Below, in pieces: positions 7,547-37,964 of a stretch of DNA of 64,000 bases (position 1 is the first letter of the stretch; every line of letters starts with the position of its first letter). Source of the DNA: Promethearchaeota archaeon (GTDB lineage Archaea > Asgardarchaeota > Thorarchaeia > Thorarchaeales > Thorarchaeaceae); contig JALVPN010000040.1 of assembly GCA_027031765.1 (NCBI GenBank), forward strand, positions 71,915 through 135,914, given 5' to 3'. The position numbers were made by a program, and so were the translations under genes. The notes under the pieces are model-generated. The model was not told where the DNA came from and ran no database searches. It saw only the letters and a program-made list of their open reading frames with translations.

Positions 7547-7842
7547 ATCTACCTTGCACGGTGGCAGCCCATGCTTTCATGGGGCCTAGTCTAAGGACGG
7601 ACGCACCCAAAATAAAGCTTGCCAAAGAGTAGAAGGAGGAGCCCAAGGGGGAGGGAGGGGCGTTGGTGTTGGAGGAGGAGCAGAACCAAGCGCCACCACT
7701 CTCATTTACGGACAACAGCAGGTCGTGTCTGCTGATGCAACCTGCAACACTGCCTACGGAAACACTGTTGCAATGGCGTGCCACGCATGGAGCATGCACC
7801 TCACGACGCACAGTGGTAGGACTGGGCTCTCGGCTTGTGGCG

Positions 7843-7850
7843 TTTAAATA
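7843..7850 (+). promoter_or_regulatory. Archaeal TATA box TTTAAATA upstream of the Roadblock-GTPase operon
   Basis: Consensus-like TATA about 110 nt upstream of the most likely start (GTG 7961). Confidence 0.45.
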
Positions 7851-7960
7851 GCCCCTTCACGACTCCATTCCGATTGGAATGTCTAAAGGCAGACCTAGGG
7901 CTGGCAGTGCAGTCCGGGCGCACTGTGTGCACGAGTGGCACAGGGCCACACGAACGAGAT

Positions 7961-8920
7961 GTGGGAGATGATGTATTGAACGACCTGAGTGACACGCTAC
8001 AGAACATCAAGATGATTACAGGAGTTGAGAATGTGGTCCTGGTGCAGAAGGACGGGGTGCCTGTCGCAAGTGCCGGGGTATGGTTTAGCAAGGAAGAGGT
8101 CTTTGCCGTTGCATCGTCCGCTTCTGCAATCTTTGGGGTCGCCCGTCTGATCCACAACGACTTCAAATACCTCCTGATGGAATCGGACACGTCAAAGGTG
8201 TTCTTGGCAGCGCTGCCCAATGACCCCGACTACTTCCTGACAATCACGACGGCCCCACGTGTGAACCTTGCTGCACTGTTCATTGAAATGCGCAGAAACC
8301 TCTCCCACCTGTCCTTTCTCCTACGACAACAGGCTGAAGGCCGCGCACCACCTCTCAGATCGTATAGCCTCGACGAGACCCAGAGGGTGCTCCGGGGGTT
8401 TGCCGTTTCAGAAGGTGACGGGACATCGTATGTGCTCTCACGCACAGTTGTTTCACTTGACCGCAGTCATGCTGTTGCTCTCCGGTCACTGCTCCGACAG
8501 ATCAGCGACAGCATCCCACGTGTGAGTTCGGTATTCCTATCACTCACCGGAGGCGTCCGGATTTCGCTGGACGGGTTCACTGATGACCGCCTTGCGGCCA
8601 TGTCATTTGCGCTGCACGATGCATCGGAGAGAGTAATCCGTACCCTCCGCAACAGTTCTCTGGCGACTGTTCTCTGTGAAACCGACTCGGTGAGACACTT
8701 TACATACTCAGTTCCAAACGGCGTCTTCAGCCTCTGGGTGGAGAAGTCGAGTCAGAAGCTTGGCTTGATGCGACTGCTCCTGAAACATTTCATCACGGAG
8801 ATGCGGCGAGTCCTGGCATCGGCATCGGTTGTCAGACCATCCATCCCGGCAGACCTGAGGGAACTGCTGCTGTCAGGGATTTCCGAAGAGTCAATACTGA
8901 TGACGAGGCGAGAACAATGA
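7961..8920 (+). CDS. Tandem Roadblock/LC7 (MglB-like) domain protein (start uncertain: GTG 7961 or ATG 8012; track start 7835 overlaps the TATA box)
   Basis: N-terminal IKMITGVENVVLVQKDGVPVASAG...AVASSASAIFGVARLI and C-terminal VSSVFLSLTGGVRISLDGFTDDRLAAMSFALHDASERV both fit the Roadblock fold pattern. Confidence 0.55.
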   Translation: MGDDVLNDLSDTLQNIKMITGVENVVLVQKDGVPVASAGVWFSKEEVFAVASSASAIFGVARLIHNDFKYLLMESDTSKVFLAALPNDPDYFLTITTAPRVNLAALFIEMRRNLSHLSFLLRQQAEGRAPPLRSYSLDETQRVLRGFAVSEGDGTSYVLSRTVVSLDRSHAVALRSLLRQISDSIPRVSSVFLSLTGGVRISLDGFTDDRLAAMSFALHDASERVIRTLRNSSLATVLCETDSVRHFTYSVPNGVFSLWVEKSSQKLGLMRLLLKHFITEMRRVLASASVVRPSIPADLRELLLSGISEESILMTRREQ

Positions 8921-9837
8921 CGTACTCGGTTCTCCGGCTGATTGAGGTCATGGGTGACCAGTTCTCCGAACTCCTCAACACAGTCCTGACCAGGGTTCCG
9001 GTTCTGGTCGTTGGCAAGGACGTTGAACTTGTGGATGACCTTACGGAGAGCCTTGCTCTCCTGTGCCCACATCGGCGCAAGCTGCTGTTCTGGCGGGACT
9101 TCACAACCGAAGAGGAGATACAGACCGTCTGGGACGAGGAGAAACACGACTATGAAGTGAGCCGCACTGTGGTCATTGGGCTGGCGTCAAATCTCAGACT
9201 TGCTCTTGACAGGATATCACAGTTCATGGGGTGGATAATGTCGGTACCGCTGGAGATATCAATACTCGGACTACGTGTGACCGAGGACTCGTTATCAGAT
9301 GTGGTCGACCGGGTTTCAGGTCCCAATGGAAACTGCGGAGTCCTACGCGTTGAGTCACCTTCGGTAATGGCCTTCTCGCTGGCCCGCCAGAGGACAAGCA
9401 CCCTTGCTGTCGAGCGGCGCATAGTATCCAAAATCCTGAAGAGGAAGCACCAGTCACTTGAGCGTATCCGACGACTCCTCAAGAAGTCACTACGGGGAGT
9501 CCCGCAATCAAACAGCCTCCTCAGTGTAGTCCTGCAACTTGACGACGAGTCGGAGAAGATAACGCGCGACGTCTTTGACGAGGAGATTGGCATCTATGTA
9601 CATGCGGCCCGCCGTGCTGTAACGCTGCTCTCAAGGATACGACTTGCAAGAGAGTTTGATGTCCCGGCCGAGCTCACAGAGCGGAACCTCTGCGAGGCCA
9701 TCGGTTGGGACGGTGGCGCACTGACAGACTTGCTGCAGTTCATGCGTGCCGAGTGGCATGAGGACTTCTCGGACTGTGTCAAGGGTAGCACCCTGTCCGA
9801 CCTCGGAGCATGGGTGGACAGTATGTGGGGTGGTTAG
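8917..9837 (+). CDS. Hypothetical 306-aa protein, middle gene of the Roadblock-GTPase operon (ATGA overlap with upstream gene)
   Basis: Long ORF, translationally coupled on both sides; no recognisable motif. Confidence 0.5.
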   Translation: MTYSVLRLIEVMGDQFSELLNTVLTRVPVLVVGKDVELVDDLTESLALLCPHRRKLLFWRDFTTEEEIQTVWDEEKHDYEVSRTVVIGLASNLRLALDRISQFMGWIMSVPLEISILGLRVTEDSLSDVVDRVSGPNGNCGVLRVESPSVMAFSLARQRTSTLAVERRIVSKILKRKHQSLERIRRLLKKSLRGVPQSNSLLSVVLQLDDESEKITRDVFDEEIGIYVHAARRAVTLLSRIRLAREFDVPAELTERNLCEAIGWDGGALTDLLQFMRAEWHEDFSDCVKGSTLSDLGAWVDSMWGG

Positions 9838-9838
9838 A

Positions 9839-10429
9839 ATGATAATTGACTATGGCAATCGCACGGTTTCGCTCAAGATTGTCTTCTTTGGTCCGGCCAT
9901 GAGCGGGAAGACGACTGCAATCCGCTGGCTCTTCAATGCCTTTGGATGTGCTGACCGACTCGTATCAATTGAGAACACCGTTGGACGGACAATGTTCTGT
10001 GACTTTGGAACACTGTCGTTTGACCTTGGTGGTGGGTGGCGAATTGACGCACATGTGTGGTCAGCCACAGGCCAAGATTTCTACAGATCCACACGAGAAG
10101 TTGTGTTGGTCGGCACGGATGGCGTTGTCTTTGTTGCAGACTCGCAGGCGATACTATTGAATGAGAACATTGCTAGCTGGCGCGAGCTCACAAGGATGCT
10201 GGAAGGAGGCGACAGCACATTCCCAGTGGTCGTGTGTCTGAACAAGCAGGATTTGCCGGACTCCATAGACGAGTCCAAGTTCAGGGAATACCTTTCATTG
10301 CCAAAGTGTGTCGCAGTCTTCAGGAGCGTTGCAAAGGACGGTGTCAACATCCTAGAGGCTTTCGAATACCTCTTCCGCCTTGCGATGCAGTCCAGCTTGC
10401 TTGCAACAACGCCGCCAATGGAGATATAG
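9839..10429 (+). CDS. Ras-superfamily small GTPase (MglA/Arf/Sar-like), starts 1 nt after upstream stop
   Basis: G1 GPAMSGKTT, G3-like WSATGQD, G4 NKQD; about 196 aa. Confidence 0.65.
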   Translation: MIIDYGNRTVSLKIVFFGPAMSGKTTAIRWLFNAFGCADRLVSIENTVGRTMFCDFGTLSFDLGGGWRIDAHVWSATGQDFYRSTREVVLVGTDGVVFVADSQAILLNENIASWRELTRMLEGGDSTFPVVVCLNKQDLPDSIDESKFREYLSLPKCVAVFRSVAKDGVNILEAFEYLFRLAMQSSLLATTPPMEI

Positions 10430-15315: not shown

Positions 15316-16002
15316 CTACTGCCGCAGCACAAAGACCCCTGAGGCTGTCCCAACATGTACTTCGTCAGCCATCCCCACGAACAGGCCAGTTTCTACAACT
15401 CCGGGAACCATCTTCAATGCCACCTCTACTTCAGCAGGGTTTTCAATCGGCTCCGGGAATTCCAGATCCAGGATGAAGTTGCCGTTGTCAGTCACCACTG
15501 GCCCGACTTTTCTTTCAGCTTGGCGAAGATGAGGCACAACCCCCATGTCTGCAATTTTCCTCATAACAATGTCGCAGGCGAAAGGAATGACTTCAACTGG
15601 GACAAAGAAGTGGGTCGCAAGCCTATCGACAAGTTTGGACTCATCCACAATGATGATGAAACGCTTGGCTGCAGAGGCAACAATCTTTTCCTGTAGTAGC
15701 GCCCCACCGCCACCCTTTGTAAGGTTCAACTGCTGGTCGACCTCGTCAGCCCCGTCCACTGCAATGTCTATTGACGGGTTCCGACTTAGGTCTGTGAGGG
15801 GGATTCCGTGTTTGATTGCAAGACGGTATGACTGGTATGAGGTTGGTACTGCAAGGAAATCCAAATCTTCGCGCACTGTGTGCTCTCCCAGTATCCGGAT
15901 GAACTCGGCAACTGTGGATCCGCTGCCAAGACCAACGACTCCATGTGGAGGCAGTTCCCGAATGGCACTCTGCGCGGCCCTGAACTTTGGAGTGGTACTC
16001 AT
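15316..16002 (-). CDS. rpiA: Ribose-5-phosphate isomerase A
   Basis: GLGSGSTV, DGADEVD, KGGGGALLQEKIVA. Confidence 0.8.
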   Translation of the reverse strand: MSTTPKFRAAQSAIRELPPHGVVGLGSGSTVAEFIRILGEHTVREDLDFLAVPTSYQSYRLAIKHGIPLTDLSRNPSIDIAVDGADEVDQQLNLTKGGGGALLQEKIVASAAKRFIIIVDESKLVDRLATHFFVPVEVIPFACDIVMRKIADMGVVPHLRQAERKVGPVVTDNGNFILDLEFPEPIENPAEVEVALKMVPGVVETGLFVGMADEVHVGTASGVFVLRQ

Positions 16003-32503: not shown

Positions 32504-32748
32504 TACTGTCATTTGCGTCTGAAGTAGTTGCGTCGCAAGTGGGACAGGCACTGCTACCCGACAACAGAGGAGTGCCCGATGGTCTTAGAATTAGGATGGG
32601 AGAATGTGGCCCAATCCTCACGGTGGTCGTGGAGTGTGACAAGGGGGCGGGCACACTACGCAATACGATAGACGACATACTTGAGGCAGTGGATGTCACA
32701 CTTAGAACGCGTGACGCCATCTTCACGGCGGCGACCAATGAGTCATAG
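32488..32748 (+). CDS. pcc1: Pcc1-like KEOPS subunit (16-nt overlap with upstream gene)
   Basis: MRATIVLSFASEVVASQVGQALLPD...LTVVVECDKGAGTLRNTIDDILEAVDV fits Pcc1 pattern; 86 aa. Confidence 0.5.
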   Translation: MRATIVLSFASEVVASQVGQALLPDNRGVPDGLRIRMGECGPILTVVVECDKGAGTLRNTIDDILEAVDVTLRTRDAIFTAATNES

Positions 32749-32919
32749 ACTCGTGTGGCAACAGGTCGGCTGAACCTAGTCCGCATGTGGGCCATGATGT
32801 CAACGTCCCAGACGGTGCTCTTCCAGCTATCCCACATCTGAGAAACAAGCCCGATAGGGAAGGACTTGCTGCCCAGTGGATAACATTAAATGTTGATGAA
32901 CATGATAGAAGACCACAGT

Positions 32920-33020
32920 GCCGGGGTATCCAAGTGGCTACGGAGACGGTCTCGAAACGCATCGTCGAGTGAACCGTTGGGGCAATCCCCGCGTGGGTTC
33001 GAATCCCTCCCCCGGCGCCA
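32920..33020 (+). tRNA. tRNA-Ser(CGA), class II, 15-nt intron at 37/38 (32957..32971); CCA encoded
   Basis: Acceptor GCCGGGG/CCCCGGC, 3-bp D-stem, anticodon stem ACGGT/ACCGT, long variable arm TGGGGCAATCCCC hairpin, T-loop TTCGAAT. Confidence 0.7.
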
Positions 33021-33099
33021 TCCAACCCTTTCGTTGATATGAGGATTGACACAATGTACTGTCACTCGAATCGGGCACCCGTATTATAGGTGGAAAGTG

Positions 33100-33222
33100 G
33101 CGAACCAAATGGTGCGGAGGGCGAGATTTGAACTCGCGAACCCCTACGGGAGTACCCCGTTGCCCGATTTTTCACTGGAACAACATCCGGGTCCTAAGCC
33201 CAGCGCCTTTGACCAGGCTTGG
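33100..33222 (-). tRNA. tRNA-Leu(TAG), class II, about 35-nt intron at anticodon-stem/variable-arm junction (about 33142..33176); CCA encoded
   Basis: Acceptor GCGGAGG/CCTCCGC, D-arm GCC AAGCCTGGTCAAA GGC, anticodon stem CTGGG/CCCGG, loop CTTAGGA, variable arm TCCCGTAGGGGTTC, T-arm GCGAG TTCAAAT CTCGC. Confidence 0.55.
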
Positions 33223-33704
33223 CAACCTCCGCTTGTTGGAGAAGAGTTGCAGCCTGGGCTGTTATAATCCTTTGGCTAGTACGATGGAGGGCAGCCAGTG
33301 GGGGGGAGCAATATCGCAAGGTCACACATGTCAAACTTGAGCCACTGGCCTAGAGCTGGTGGGGGCAGGCAAACGGGGCGACATCCCAGCATCTGAACCA
33401 TCACTGATACGACTCAATGGCATTCGTGGGCCACATGCAAATCCCTTGTCAGCCTCGCACTCTAAGGAGCTGCCGTGCCAAGTACAGTGCAATGGCCATC
33501 AAACTGTGGAGTTGACATCACTTACGCACTCATTCAGAATCCGTGCGTGCTTCCTTTTCGGAACTCGTTGCTGAAAGGGAACATACCAAATGAGAGTATA
33601 AATCCTTGAACCATCATAAGACGGGGCATATGCGTCGTGTTTGAATTACTAGATCCAGAAATTGGTGACAGGTTTGCCACGACACATGACCTGGATGATG
33701 CTGG

Positions 33705-33836
33705 TCAGTCGCGGACCTCCCAGTTGTGTTGACACCGTGGGCAACGCATCAGACGACGATAGCCCCCTGTCGGTAGAAGCTCTTTCTTGACGAGCGCTAC
33801 ATCCTTGAAGCCACACTTTGGACACTTTTCGCTCAT
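33705..33836 (-). CDS. 43-aa zinc-ribbon protein (absent from ORF track, below length cutoff)
   Basis: MSEKCPKCGF...RLMRCPRCQHNWEVRD: two CxxC pairs, clean ATG..TGA ORF. Confidence 0.4.
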   Translation of the reverse strand: MSEKCPKCGFKDVALVKKELLPTGGYRRLMRCPRCQHNWEVRD

Positions 33837-34115
33837 GGCCACTCACGCGATTCGAAGTTCACACAGTCAGATTATCTAGTTTGCTGTTATGTACTGCAAA
33901 CACGTGACCGATATACGGACGAATCAAAGTGAAGTGGGGCACCATTGCAGGGACTGGGGGTTTCCGTCCTAGTGACACTGGGAGGACATGAGATAGCCAC
34001 CAATGCGTCTCGTGGAGCTACTGCACAGCGGTTGCATGGGCCGAGCGGGTAATATGCAGATGACACCGGGTTTAAAGATAGACCTAGCCCTAACGGATAG
34101 CTCGGGTATGTTGTC

Positions 34116-34400
34116 ATGAAGCCCATTGAGGAAAGAGTAAGAAGCGTACTACGACAGGATGGGATAGATTGCCATACCGTGTATGCGATGCCAGATCCAG
34201 ATGCCAAGAAGATACTCCTAGCATTTGGTGCCAACAAAAACCGCAGGCTCACAACAAGCAGAATCGAACGGATTCTGAACTCAAGTGGTCTTGGACGTTT
34301 CAATGTGCCAAGGGAGTTCCAGAGACTGAGCGCTGCATTTCTTCACCTTGAGGTTACGCTAGGTGCCGATACCCCCGTCCCAGATGACAATGCACGTTGA
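34116..34400 (+). CDS. Hypothetical 94-aa protein
   Basis: ORF with protein-like composition; preferred over overlapping antisense ORF 33887..34303. Confidence 0.3.
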   Translation: MKPIEERVRSVLRQDGIDCHTVYAMPDPDAKKILLAFGANKNRRLTTSRIERILNSSGLGRFNVPREFQRLSAAFLHLEVTLGADTPVPDDNAR

Positions 34401-34433
34401 AACAGGAAGCAGACGGAGGCGTCACAACTGGAC

Positions 34434-35183
34434 TTGGAACTGACGGACAGACGGTTCTTGGTCACAGCTGCGTCGCGCGGACTTGGGTACAGCGTTGCCA
34501 GCGTTCTAGTTGACGAGGGGGCGAGGGTCATAATCTGCGGTCGGAATCAGGACGCTCTTGAGGCCGCAACGGATGCGCTTGGTGGGACTGCCCATTATGT
34601 GGTGGCCGACCTGTCAAAACGTGAGGATATAGCAAGGCTGGCCGAAGAGGTGAACGGGCATTTCGAGGAGTTGGACGGACTATTTGTGAATGCGGGAGGG
34701 CCGCGCCCAGGTAGGTTCGACGATGTCTTGGACAGCGACTGGGCTGACGCATTCCAGCTTACGGTGATGAGCGCGGTTCGCTTGACGAAGAGCATTGTAC
34801 CCCTGTTGCGAAAGTCTGAAACCCCAAGTATCCTATATAGCACTTCAATCTCGGTCAAGCAGCCTATTGACGGTCTAGTGCTCTCGAACTCCCTAAGACT
34901 GAGTGTCATAGGACTCATGCGGACACTAGCACGGGAGCTGGGAACAATTGGAATCAGAATCAATGCAGTCTGTCCAGGGTATTTCTCGACACGACGTGTT
35001 CAGGAGCTGATAGGCGACAACCAAAAGATGGCACAAGAAATCATTCAGGCCATCCCACTCGGCAGGATGGGCGAGCCCATCGAGTTTGGCCGCATATGTT
35101 CATTCCTCATGAGCCCACTGGCCAGCTATGTCCATGGGGCAGTAGTGTTGATTGATGGGGGAATATATCGAGGCATGACGTAG
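34434..35183 (+). CDS. Short-chain dehydrogenase/reductase (SDR)
   Basis: TAASRGLGYSVA Rossmann motif and SDR catalytic region. Confidence 0.85.
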   Translation: MELTDRRFLVTAASRGLGYSVASVLVDEGARVIICGRNQDALEAATDALGGTAHYVVADLSKREDIARLAEEVNGHFEELDGLFVNAGGPRPGRFDDVLDSDWADAFQLTVMSAVRLTKSIVPLLRKSETPSILYSTSISVKQPIDGLVLSNSLRLSVIGLMRTLARELGTIGIRINAVCPGYFSTRRVQELIGDNQKMAQEIIQAIPLGRMGEPIEFGRICSFLMSPLASYVHGAVVLIDGGIYRGMT

Positions 35184-35188
35184 GTGTA

Positions 35189-36241
35189 CTACGCAAACAT
35201 CCGGCGGAGCGCGACCACGGCATATCTCCGGACTTGGTCGTCCTCGTCATCAATGAGTTCCTGCAGGAGAGGTGCTGACGGGGCGAACCGTGCTACGCCC
35301 ATCGCCCAAGCAGCATGTCGTCGGACACGCACATCATCGGAGCACAATAGTTGTGCTATGGCGCGGAGGACAAAGTCAGACCTGTCAGCAACAAGAATGC
35401 GAATCAGTCGGATCTGTTCGTTTGGCTCGGCCTGGTGCAACGCATCGACCAGACACTGTAGTGCATGTGCACTGTGCATGCCCAACAGAGCGCGGGCTGC
35501 CCACTCGCGTACCGAATCAGAGGAATCTTCCAACGCCGCCAGCAGACACATGATTGAGGATGGGGCGCTTATTTTTGCAAGCGCCCACGCGCTGGATTGC
35601 CTGACCTCAGGATGCGAGTCGCCCAGTAGGGTGCAGAGCGTACCTATGGCCCGGTCATCAACAGAGTTGGTCATAGCGTATATAGCCTCAACCCGGAGTT
35701 CGAGCGGGACGGACTGGTCGCGTGCCATGAAACGAAGTATGCGCTGTGCCTCACTAGAGCTGGACAGGGAGAGGAGATGAACTGCCCACTTCCTCACATT
35801 GAATGGTTCCTCATCGCTAAGCAGCAGGTCAGCCACATGTAAATCAGGACTGTTGTCGTGGATTCTGTAGGCCGCCTGTAGTCCGCGGACACGAATTTCG
35901 GAGCTGGAATCTTGCAGGGCATGCAACACAATCTTGTGGCCAGATTTCGAGTCAAGAAAATCTACCAAGCGCAGTAGCCGTAGTCGATGTTGGTGGTAGT
36001 GCGCATCATCACTTCCGAAAACGGCCTCGACGAATTCCAAGAATGGGGCAGGCGATTCGTTAGCAATGCGGATAAGAGTATTTCTTGTGCTAGTCGAGTC
36101 CTGTCCGAGGAGGGCAAGTAGCCGACGGATGTCACGAGAATGCCGAGCTTGCTTCCTCGGAGGCTTAGCAGGCAAAGAGAGGTCACCGTGACCCATATTT
36201 GTCAACATAGAGGGCGAGCAGCAGAAATTGCTACTCGCCAC
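35189..36241 (-). CDS. HEAT-repeat (PBS-lyase type) protein
   Basis: Repeated DSSDSVREWAARALLGMHSAHAL / DDVRVRRHAAWAMG units. Confidence 0.7.
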   Translation of the reverse strand: MASSNFCCSPSMLTNMGHGDLSLPAKPPRKQARHSRDIRRLLALLGQDSTSTRNTLIRIANESPAPFLEFVEAVFGSDDAHYHQHRLRLLRLVDFLDSKSGHKIVLHALQDSSSEIRVRGLQAAYRIHDNSPDLHVADLLLSDEEPFNVRKWAVHLLSLSSSSEAQRILRFMARDQSVPLELRVEAIYAMTNSVDDRAIGTLCTLLGDSHPEVRQSSAWALAKISAPSSIMCLLAALEDSSDSVREWAARALLGMHSAHALQCLVDALHQAEPNEQIRLIRILVADRSDFVLRAIAQLLCSDDVRVRRHAAWAMGVARFAPSAPLLQELIDDEDDQVRRYAVVALRRMFA

Positions 36242-37430
36242 TCATCAGAGCTCTCAGTCGTTCCATTTCTGCAAGCATTTCCGACTGCAGTGTAGTCTTG
36301 GTACTGCCGGCTGTGCTCGTCTGCGCGGTAGGAACTGTAGGTGCCGTGGAAACACCACCACCGGGAGGACCACCACCAGGAGGACCACCACCAGGAGGAC
36401 CACCACCAGGGGCACCACCACCAGGGGCACCACCACCAGGAGGACCACCACCAGGAGGACCACCACCAGGAGGACCACCACCAGGAGGACCACCACCAGG
36501 AGGACCACCACCGGGAGGACCACCACCAGGAGGACCACCACCAGGGGCACCACCACCAGGAGGACCACCACCAGGGGCACCACCACCAGGAGGACCACCA
36601 CCAGGGGCACCACCACCAGGAGGACCACCACCAGGAGGACCACCACCAGGAGGACCACCACCAGGAGGACCACCACCAGGAGGACCACCACCAGGGGCAC
36701 CACCACCAGGAGGACCACCACCAGGGGCACCACCACCAGGAGGACCACCACCAGGGGCACCACCACCAGGAGGACCACCACCAGGAGGACCACCACCGGG
36801 AGTTAGTGTAACAGAAGTGGCAGGTGCCGCTGACCCAGGCACGCCTACACTTGGTGGTCCTGCTTCAACCTCTTCGGATTCGACAGAAGTCCCAGCCATC
36901 AGCGTGAGTTTCTGCAGATAATCGCGTCGTGCTTGGTCGGCAGCTGTTGCAGTGGCAAGTATCTCTTTCAACTCCTCATCTCTTGCAATTGCCTGTCGTA
37001 CGACCTCGAGTCGATCTCGATAGAGGGTGGTGAGGAGCTCTCTTAGACTATCGTCAATTTCGCCTTTGTCCGCATAGTAGTCGACTGCAACCAGTGCCTG
37101 CTGAAGCGCATTCTCCTCAATCTTTAGGAAGACGAGTGCCTCGTTGGGATCTTTGATGAAGGACACCCTTCTTGTTCCCGAGATGCCAGCTGAAACATCA
37201 CCGGTCGATGCAATTATGGCCCGAATCCCGTCCAAAACACCACTGCCACGGGTCTGTCTGATGCGGTGAATGAGGTACAGAATAGTAAGCCATACAGGAA
37301 TAGAGTATATAATCATCAGCCATGCGTACGCTCCGAATGGAAAACCAAGAGGGCGCATGACACTCTCAATATGGCTGAACACGCTCATTATGGCGGATGT
37401 GATATCTCCATAAATATCCAACAACTGCAC
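36231..37430 (-). CDS. Membrane-anchored protein with N-terminal TM helix, helical segment and about 30 tandem PGGGP/PGGGA pentapeptide repeats
   Basis: AWLMIIYSIPVWLTILYLI hydrophobic helix; repeats GGPPGGGA/PPGGG; 11-nt overlap with downstream HEAT gene. Confidence 0.6.
   Translation of the reverse strand: MQLLDIYGDITSAIMSVFSHIESVMRPLGFPFGAYAWLMIIYSIPVWLTILYLIHRIRQTRGSGVLDGIRAIIASTGDVSAGISGTRRVSFIKDPNEALVFLKIEENALQQALVAVDYYADKGEIDDSLRELLTTLYRDRLEVVRQAIARDEELKEILATATAADQARRDYLQKLTLMAGTSVESEEVEAGPPSVGVPGSAAPATSVTLTPGGGPPGGGPPGGGAPGGGPPGGGAPGGGPPGGGAPGGGPPGGGPPGGGPPGGGPPGGGPPGGGAPGGGPPGGGAPGGGPPGGGAPGGGPPGGGPPGGGPPGGGPPGGGPPGGGPPGGGPPGGGAPGGGAPGGGPPGGGPPGGGPPGGGVSTAPTVPTAQTSTAGSTKTTLQSEMLAEMERLRALMSGE
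36355..36805. repeat. Near-perfect 15-bp tandem repeat (ccaccaccaggagga / variant ggggcacc), about 30 copies, coding
   Basis: Visible by eye; all six frames give long artefactual ORFs in the track. Confidence 0.9.
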
Positions 37431-37858: not shown

Positions 37859-37964
37859 GCCCCAGTAGCAAAGTGGTCTACTGCACCTGACTTGTAAGGT
37901 TGTAGTGAGACCTGCTCGTCAAGAAATCAGGAGATCGTGGGTTCAAATCCCACCTGGGGCTCCA
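37859..37964 (+). tRNA. tRNA-Thr(TGT) with 29-nt intron at 37/38 (37897..37925); CCA encoded
   Basis: Acceptor GCCCCAG/CTGGGGC, anticodon stem CCTGA/TCAGG, loop CTTGTA-A, T-arm GTGGG TTCAAAT CCCAC. Confidence 0.75.

Follow-up and report, generated by a model that had tools for sequence, protein, structure and literature searches.

The gene considered here lies in a 64,000-nucleotide stretch of contig JALVPN010000040.1 (positions 71,915 to 135,914; assembly GCA_027031765.1) from the Thorarchaeia member Promethearchaeota archaeon. The whole stretch was analysed and is called the window in the following; all coordinates refer to it. The gene, termed the tether gene, encodes a protein with an N-terminal transmembrane (TM) helix, a helical hairpin, a disordered Pro/Gly-rich linker and a short amphipathic helix at the C-terminus (Table 1). 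Judged by its sequence and its position, it is a positional orthologue and a divergent member of an uncharacterised family that is restricted to the Asgard archaea. We consider it reasonably likely that the protein crosses the membrane once with the N-terminus outside, that its bulk resides in the cytoplasm and that it forms a flexible tether there which presents a binding helix. Special to this window are only the perfection and the length of the repeat that encodes the linker.

The tether protein consists of four helical parts and a disordered linker

The GTG start of the 399-aa open reading frame (ORF) agrees with the N-termini of the homologues (MQL...). A structural model was calculated with AlphaFold2 (AF2) on an alignment of 29 sequences. 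A preliminary description of the gene, made from the DNA letters, had proposed a membrane anchor, a helical region, a Pro/Gly spacer and a short C-terminal helix. The model concurs and gives, for the segments outside of the repeat, an N-terminal helix, the TM helix, a hairpin and a C-terminal helix. The hairpin helices comprise the residues 95-121 and 127-178 and were predicted with a local confidence (pLDDT) above 90, and the C-terminal helix was predicted at the residues 380-396 with a pLDDT of about 85. Across the linker the pLDDT was below 50 and the disorder spans the residues ~180-378. The juxtamembrane segment that follows the TM helix was also predicted with low confidence and is poorly ordered.

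The protein terminates in the motif LQSEMLAEMERLR followed by ALMSGE, which fits the family motif L..EM..E..R.[KR] close to the end of the protein. The motif has no second occurrence in the window. All five features by which the family is recognised were found in the window protein, namely a TM helix with a basic C-terminal flank, the hairpin, the linker, the C-terminal motif and positional orthology. The latter is seen upstream of the gene, where the order GDT1-GatD-GatE-PGK-DUF1294 is the same as in other Thorarchaeota.

The architecture is conserved in three Asgard branches

With the N-terminal part of the protein, excluding the repeat, as the query, 185 homologues with 50-60% identity were retrieved. 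Their lengths were mostly 260-345 aa, besides a few truncated fragments. All of them were unnamed or annotated as 'hypothetical', and the organism, where stated, was nearly always Candidatus Thorarchaeota. When one genome per GTDB species was scanned, 70 loci were found with a maximal identity of 58%, and their titles were nearly all Thorarchaeota or Promethearchaeota, with about a dozen given as 'uncultured archaeon' or 'archaeon'. At every examined locus the gene was present as a single copy. When 1.84 billion representatives were searched exhaustively with a profile, only 10 matches were obtained, and a search of metagenome contigs gave no close relatives of the window protein. Its exact sequence likewise had no database record. 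The window thus represents a divergent lineage that is absent from the collections.

The alignment revealed four conserved elements: the TM region, the juxtamembrane sequence IIASTGDVSxG, a number of hairpin positions and a near-invariant C-terminus. In the Thorarchaeota branch, the juxtamembrane columns I73, A74, S75, T76, G77, D78, S80, G82 and G85 are invariant, and the motif is missing from the Sifarchaeia and the Heimdall-type members. The best-conserved part is the C-terminus, with the Thorarchaeota consensus K[ST][ST]LQSEMLxEMERL[KR]xLMxG[DE] and 15 invariant positions in the last 22 residues of the family alignment. Of the 250 retrieved proteins, 236 had the motif L..EM..E..R.[KR], in each case at a distance of 5-9 residues from the C-terminus, and its L, E, M, E and R are invariant in all branches. 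The remaining 14 proteins are fragments, frameshifted copies or P0128, which has an unrelated scaffold.

The distant full-length members P0126 and P0127 share this layout, with a TM helix, a hairpin and a Pro-rich linker, and their terminal helices are ASLRSEMLNELRRLKKYM and SDLRREMMDELNRLKRLI, respectively. Two further profile searches led to three groups. The first comprises the relatives of P0126, one of which is labelled Sifarchaeia by its source. The second is a large Heimdall-type or 'Asgard group' subfamily, represented by P0165, which terminates in ISGLRMEMLRELARLKKFMSEETQ. For P0165, AF2 predicted a TM helix at the residues 16-45, a hairpin at 73-99 and 105-153, disorder from 154 to 300 and a helix at 301-323. 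The third group is a variant (P0164 and P0167) without a TM helix that has retained the end helix as well as the Pro-rich region. P0160, which belongs with P0126 to the first group (Sifarchaeia), shares its gene neighbourhood with the Thorarchaeota and adjoins ribose-5-phosphate isomerase, T2SSE and a tRNA endonuclease. The tether architecture is conserved in Thorarchaeota, Sifarchaeia and Heimdall-type archaea.

The preliminary description had recognised no described archaeal family with this layout. This holds in so far as Pfam and NCBIfam were empty and every name was 'hypothetical'. The literature on Asgard proline-rich, WH2, MIM or Arf-neighbour proteins also does not describe the family. 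The window protein is, however, not an orphan, as a conserved Asgard family exists.

A separate observation concerns P0128, a metagenomic protein of 475 aa. One of its segments, AIDKARSDYLRTLAAMSGTTVE, matches the last part of the Thorarchaeota family hairpin almost perfectly. The rest of the scaffold differs and has a multi-TM N-terminus, another C-terminal domain and a Cys-rich end.

The charge distribution predicts a cytoplasmic linker and end helix

The lysine and arginine residues were counted in the 15 residues on either side of the most hydrophobic 19-mer, for which the mean Kyte-Doolittle hydropathy in the family is 2.8. All 186 motif-bearing members had more K+R after the TM helix than before it, with means of 3.73 and 0.06, respectively, and the N-terminal flank is almost devoid of K and R throughout the family. 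Because of this bias, the positive-inside rule predicts a short N-terminus outside of the cell and a cytoplasmic location for the hairpin, the linker and the end helix. The N-terminal amphipathic helix is then predicted to lie outside of the cell or at the interface.

The architecture had initially been likened to flexible-tether or surface-spacer proteins. The tether part of this comparison was retained, as the protein has a membrane anchor, a Pro/Gly linker and an end helix. A role as a surface spacer is disfavoured by the predicted cytoplasmic location of the C-terminal part.

A stalk outside of the cell would require the opposite orientation, with the N-terminus inside and the C-terminus outside, such that the Pro/Gly region bridges from the membrane to the surface as in TonB or an S-layer stalk. 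A Pro-rich spacer that follows an N-terminal anchor is typical of TonB-like and cell-surface proteins, and the only Pfam match of the full protein was a weak, compositional one to Extensin, which with E = 0.001 fell far short of the cut-off. Against such a stalk stands the uniform charge bias in 186 of 186 members. In addition, the protein has no signal peptide, the Thorarchaeota branch lacks a Ser/Thr-rich stalk of the glycosylation type, and the C-terminal motif is also found on the TM-less and apparently cytosolic proteins P0164 and P0167. We regard an extracellular stalk as quite improbable.

The C-terminal helix is a candidate binding motif

We propose that the N-terminal helix and the TM segment would fix the protein in the membrane. 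The hairpin of 27 + 52 residues would be positioned close to the membrane, where it probably oligomerises or serves as a second docking module. The disordered Pro/Gly-rich stretch of 100-200 residues would be an entropic spacer and may act as a spring. The near-invariant C-terminal helix of 22 residues would be a portable short binding motif that probably captures a putative partner, soluble or membrane-proximal, in trans at the inner face of the membrane.

Alternatively, the end helix might dock on the hairpin of its own or of a neighbouring molecule, leading to an autoinhibited state or to an elastic mesh close to the membrane. Hairpin and end helix are indeed two conserved helical elements with high-confidence predictions, and a few hairpin positions (L..E, A, Y..R) are invariant in all branches. 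However, the hairpin sequence diverges strongly from branch to branch, whereas the end helix is nearly constant. Moreover, P0164 and P0167 have kept the motif without a recognisable homologue of the hairpin. Such a self-association appears unlikely to us.

Several points weigh against a tethered helix that binds in trans. The end helix could instead fold back onto the hairpin. The topology is deduced from the positive-inside rule as its single basis. No Pfam or NCBIfam family was found for the full protein, for the N-terminal part or for the distant members, and no homology was detected to any characterised family in Pfam, NCBIfam or the PDB sequences. The fold searches gave generic hairpins only, and Foldseek against the PDB returned nothing below E = 0.3. 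Finally, many linker positions are invariant in the Heimdall-type members, where the 'spacer' itself probably contains binding motifs. If the partner does not exist, what is left is a conserved hypothetical protein whose low-complexity linker is ordinary.

No known relatives of the eukaryotes are closer than the Asgard archaea, and little is known about how their eukaryote-like proteins of the cytoskeleton, of ESCRT and of the small-GTPase families are anchored to membranes. A conserved and syntenic family with an anchor, a long tether and a terminal helix is a testable candidate for a membrane recruitment factor. In a more specific form, the family would be an Asgard-specific membrane adaptor for eukaryote-like machinery and the end helix would correspond, in archaea, to one of the short linear motifs of eukaryotes. 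The partner may be a MIT-domain ATPase such as Vps4 (with a MIM1-like end helix), a roadblock/Rag-Arf GTPase module (LAMTOR1-like) or actin or profilin (Pro-rich region and WH2-like helix), none of which is favoured. We assign a low likelihood to this specific form.

The searches for known motifs were as follows. The best Foldseek matches were hairpins of the ESCRT-I headpiece (Vps23 core, Vps28 and Vps37), all weak with E >= 0.3. With the distant members, Pfam gave a single weak match to SHOCT in one protein (E = 0.08). The sequence RLK(A/K)(L/F) of the end helix resembles the LKKV of WH2 only loosely, and no WH2 profile match was obtained at E up to 5 with the hairpin construct and the distant members, or up to 0.1 with the full protein. 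A match to the charged single helix of myosin VIIa in a profile search of PDB sequences (E = 0.003) was judged spurious. GISGTRR, for which the relatives have GxSGxKK, was ruled out as a Walker-A motif because GK[ST] is missing, and UIM, VIM and other helical motifs did not fit when checked by eye.

Comparison with known tethered proteins

ZipA resembles the tether protein in its bitopic N-out/C-in anchor without a signal peptide, its basic juxtamembrane stretch, its long unstructured Pro-rich tether and its C-terminal element for binding a partner. In contrast to the 22-residue helix, this element is a globular FtsZ-binding domain in ZipA. The hairpin of the tether family is missing in ZipA, which belongs to the bacterial divisome, whereas the tether family is archaeal (Asgard). 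The two are not related in sequence, and Pfam showed no match to ZipA_C in the tether protein or in the distant members.

A variable disordered linker with a short conserved end that recruits a partner is likewise found in the C-terminal linker and peptide of FtsZ, in the ribosomal stalk proteins P1/P2 and in the ESCRT-III tails with MIM1. The Snf7/ESCRT-III core fold is absent from the tether protein, and the core domains of FtsZ and of the stalk proteins are lacking as well. The register of the end helix (i, i+4, i+7, then K/R) resembles MIM1, which we take as a lead only. The residues M385, M389, L392 and R393 align with the L, L, L and K/R of MIM1, and the last residue is K in most relatives. 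At the key Arg position of MIM1, however, the end helix has the conserved Glu388. For this alignment the C-terminal consensus (D/E)xxLxxRLxxL(K/R) was used, in part after PMC7240154.

TonB also combines a TM anchor at the N-terminus with a Pro-rich spacer behind it. Its spacer is periplasmic and leads to the globular TonB_C, whereas the linker here is predicted to be cytoplasmic and no C-terminal domain follows; TonB_C had no Pfam match in the tether protein. The likeness to elastin (VPGXG) and flagelliform silk (GPGGX) is one of composition alone and consists of the pentapeptide period and the high content of Pro + Gly, which amounts to 77% in the window linker. Such a period together with very high Pro + Gly predicts a disordered, spring-like chain. 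The elastomeric repeats belong to secreted structural polymers, in contrast to the short intracellular segment proposed here, and the relatives of the window protein use PSGG, PT and PA, such that the pentapeptide as such is not conserved.

LAMTOR1 is similar in being a membrane-anchored and mostly extended protein whose helices dock on partner dimers. It differs by its lipid anchor instead of a TM anchor, and there is no sequence similarity. In the Heimdall-type loci L077 (9112-10038), L078, L080, L081 and L082 the next gene on the same strand encodes an Arf-family GTPase of ~308 aa, with a GTPase domain (E = 5e-22) and a C-terminal extension of ~130 aa that has no Pfam match. The neighbourhood is syntenic throughout in all five loci. 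Since the whole block is syntenic within one lineage, the adjacency to the GTPase is weak evidence and is taken as a lead. Truncated roadblock dimers of Asgard archaea have been proposed to offer a site for a partner helix (PMC10933270), and a LAMTOR1-like reading is therefore conceivable.

Table 1. Coordinates of the tether gene, its parts and the adjoining features in the window
Feature	Position	Strand	Description
Tether gene	36231..37430	(-)	399 aa, GTG start; from the ORF list; member of an uncharacterised Asgard family
N-terminal amphipathic helix	37347..37430	(-)	aa 1-28; AF2 helix 2-28, pLDDT ~80
Transmembrane helix	37254..37331	(-)	aa 34-59; AF2 helix 34-59; followed by basic HRIRQTR
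Juxtamembrane motif IIASTGDVSxGxxGxKK..F	37158..37217	(-)	aa 72-91; from alignment columns
Helical hairpin	36897..37148	(-)	aa 95-178; helices of 27 and 52 residues
Disordered Pro/Gly-rich linker	36300..36890	(-)	aa 181-377, 197 aa; P 29%, G 48%
15-bp tandem array	36354..36802	(-)	29.9 copies, PGGG[P/A] x29-30; Tandem Repeats Finder
C-terminal amphipathic helix KTTLQSEMLAEMERLRALMSGE	36234..36299	(-)	aa 378-399; family motif L..EM..E..R.[KR]
RNA stem-loop	36213..36239	(-)	spans the tether stop codon; 11-bp stem, dG -24.7 kcal/mol, z = -5.7
HEAT-repeat protein	35189..36241	(-)	350 aa as longest ORF; HEAT_2 E = 1e-26, HEAT_PBS E = 2e-6

The linker is encoded by a tandem array that was probably expanded recently

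The initial count of about 30 PGGGP/PGGGA units from a near-perfect 15-bp array was reproduced by Tandem Repeats Finder, which assigned the array 92% matches, no indels and a score of 765. Within it, 29 contiguous PGGG[P/A] units were found at the residues 211-355, corresponding to 36366..36800 in the window. These 435 nt consist of only three DNA unit variants, 19 copies of CCTGGTGGTGGTCCT, 8 of CCTGGTGGTGGTGCC and 2 of CCCGGTGGTGGTCCT, and all glycine codons are identical. The self-similarity of the array peaks at a shift of 150 bp, which corresponds to a higher-order period of 10 units. Among the relatives, the next-best score was 463, obtained with 8.4 copies of a 33-bp unit. Since the array has three unit variants only, identical glycine codons and a score far above that of any relative, it is probably a recent in-frame expansion or homogenisation in one lineage. 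The 15-bp unit would have been multiplied in frame by slippage or unequal exchange, lengthening the tether; slippage by such a unit changes the length of the tether without a frame shift.

The repeat is coding. The conserved N-terminal domain and the near-invariant C-terminal helix flank it in one frame, and the same arrangement was found in ~50 intact homologues. A frameshift or a non-coding nature of the repeat, considered at the outset, did not apply. The linker length was measured for the window and 50 loci. With its 197 residues the window linker is the longest of the 51, the others have 101-151 residues, and the median is 126. This range of 101-197 aa agrees with the expectation of the preliminary description that the repeat is prone to copy-number variation. 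The composition also varies by branch, with PGGG and PSGG in the Thorarchaeota and PT/PA-rich sequences with PPPPP runs elsewhere. The array represents a natural case of in-frame variation of a tether length.

The gene and its Pro/Gly linker may be real and the length of the array still be an assembly artefact, with the ~30 units collapsed or expanded. An array of 435 nt with only three unit variants is in keeping with such an error. In other genomes the contigs end within the repeat (L032, L034, L036, L038, L052, L057, L058, L066, L069 and L073-L076) or the two halves of the gene are in different frames (L010, L024, L043, L053 and P0061). In the window, however, the frame is intact and links two conserved modules. 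The pattern of P and A units is structured, with the 150-bp higher-order period, and is not a featureless run, and the contig extends for at least 64 kb across the array. An artefact in the length is rather unlikely in our view, though it has a real chance, and the exact copy number in this genome is accordingly given as putative. As many public metagenome-assembled genomes of Thorarchaeota break or frameshift inside the Pro/Gly repeat, the tether family is easily mis-annotated.

The adjacency to the HEAT gene is a peculiarity of this lineage

The gene downstream of the tether gene had been described as encoding HEAT repeats of the PBS-lyase type, and the profile matches leave the HEAT assignment in place (Table 1). 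When compared with the CpcE/CpcF/NblB equivalogs, the protein scored 26-29 bits with cut-offs of 220-330 bits. It is a generic HEAT solenoid and no bilin lyase.

The two genes had also been reported to overlap by 11 nt. This is correct for the longest ORF, which begins with a GTG at 36241. An RNA stem-loop was detected at the junction, and none of 200 shuffled sequences folded equally well. The putative GTG start was placed inside this stem-loop. The ATG at 36208, just past the stem, is the likelier start of the HEAT gene. Because the strong hairpin spans the stop codon and the GTG, the overlap is probably an artefact of ORF calling. Weaker hairpins that span the stop codon were also found at the 3' end of the tether gene elsewhere, for example in L044, L068, L001 and L065.

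In five loci with called genes, the tether gene is followed by ribose-5-phosphate isomerase and then by T2SSE, tRNA endonuclease, HycI and IF-2B. When all loci were searched by tblastn, the isomerase was found 0.1-0.7 kb downstream of the tether gene in 66 of them. The same search detected the HEAT gene in the window and in L001 only, and it adjoins the tether gene in the window only. In the window, the isomerase is located at 15319-15987 (-), ~20 kb from the tether gene. From this displacement, we conclude that a large lineage-specific rearrangement has created the adjacency of the HEAT and tether genes. The region between the isomerase and the tether gene contains the genes of RNA polymerase B/A'/A'', Kae1 and others.

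The two proteins could nevertheless be a co-translated pair in which the HEAT solenoid binds the C-terminal helix of the tether. HEAT solenoids commonly bind helical peptides. The genes are adjacent on the same strand and their ORFs overlap if the GTG at 36241 is used, and the Thorarchaeota include at least one further genome (L001) with an orthologue of the HEAT protein, at 48% identity. In L001, however, the orthologue is ~7 kb away and oriented the opposite way relative to the tether gene; it is accompanied there by the same short-chain dehydrogenase gene. In 66 loci the downstream position is taken by the isomerase. The Heimdall-type members have yet another neighbour, and in the window the strong stem-loop holds the putative GTG start. 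The tblastn search of all loci rules out the HEAT partnership as a conserved feature. The functional pairing suggested by the preliminary description was not borne out, and we consider a co-translated pair highly improbable.

Other features of the window

The window is a housekeeping region of the chromosome of a Thorarchaeota-type Asgard archaeon, with genes for RNA polymerase subunits, Kae1, GatD/E, PGK and PAN, intron-bearing tRNAs and a roadblock/small-GTPase cluster. This cluster at 7835-10429 (+) consists of three ORFs: one of 361 aa that includes two Roadblock/LC7 stretches, one of 306 aa without a family match and one of 227 aa for a small GTPase of the Arf/Ras family. It recalls the pairing of roadblock proteins and small GTPases described for MglA/MglB (PMC10933270). 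No link of this cluster to the tether gene was shown.

Rfam identified tRNA genes of 98-120 nt at 1237-1341, 32920-33017, 33113-33232 and 37859-37961, in which introns are presumed from the length. ARAGORN misses these long tRNAs and reports only two intron-less ones (Arg-tcg and Val-tac). Between two of the tRNAs and the short-chain dehydrogenase gene, a region of ~1.1 kb (33300-34430) has no convincing long ORF. When 32600-34500 was scanned with Rfam, the two tRNAs at 32920-33232 were the sole matches, and 33300-34430 was empty even at a permissive threshold. A 94-aa ORF at 34116-34400 (+) within this region might be real.

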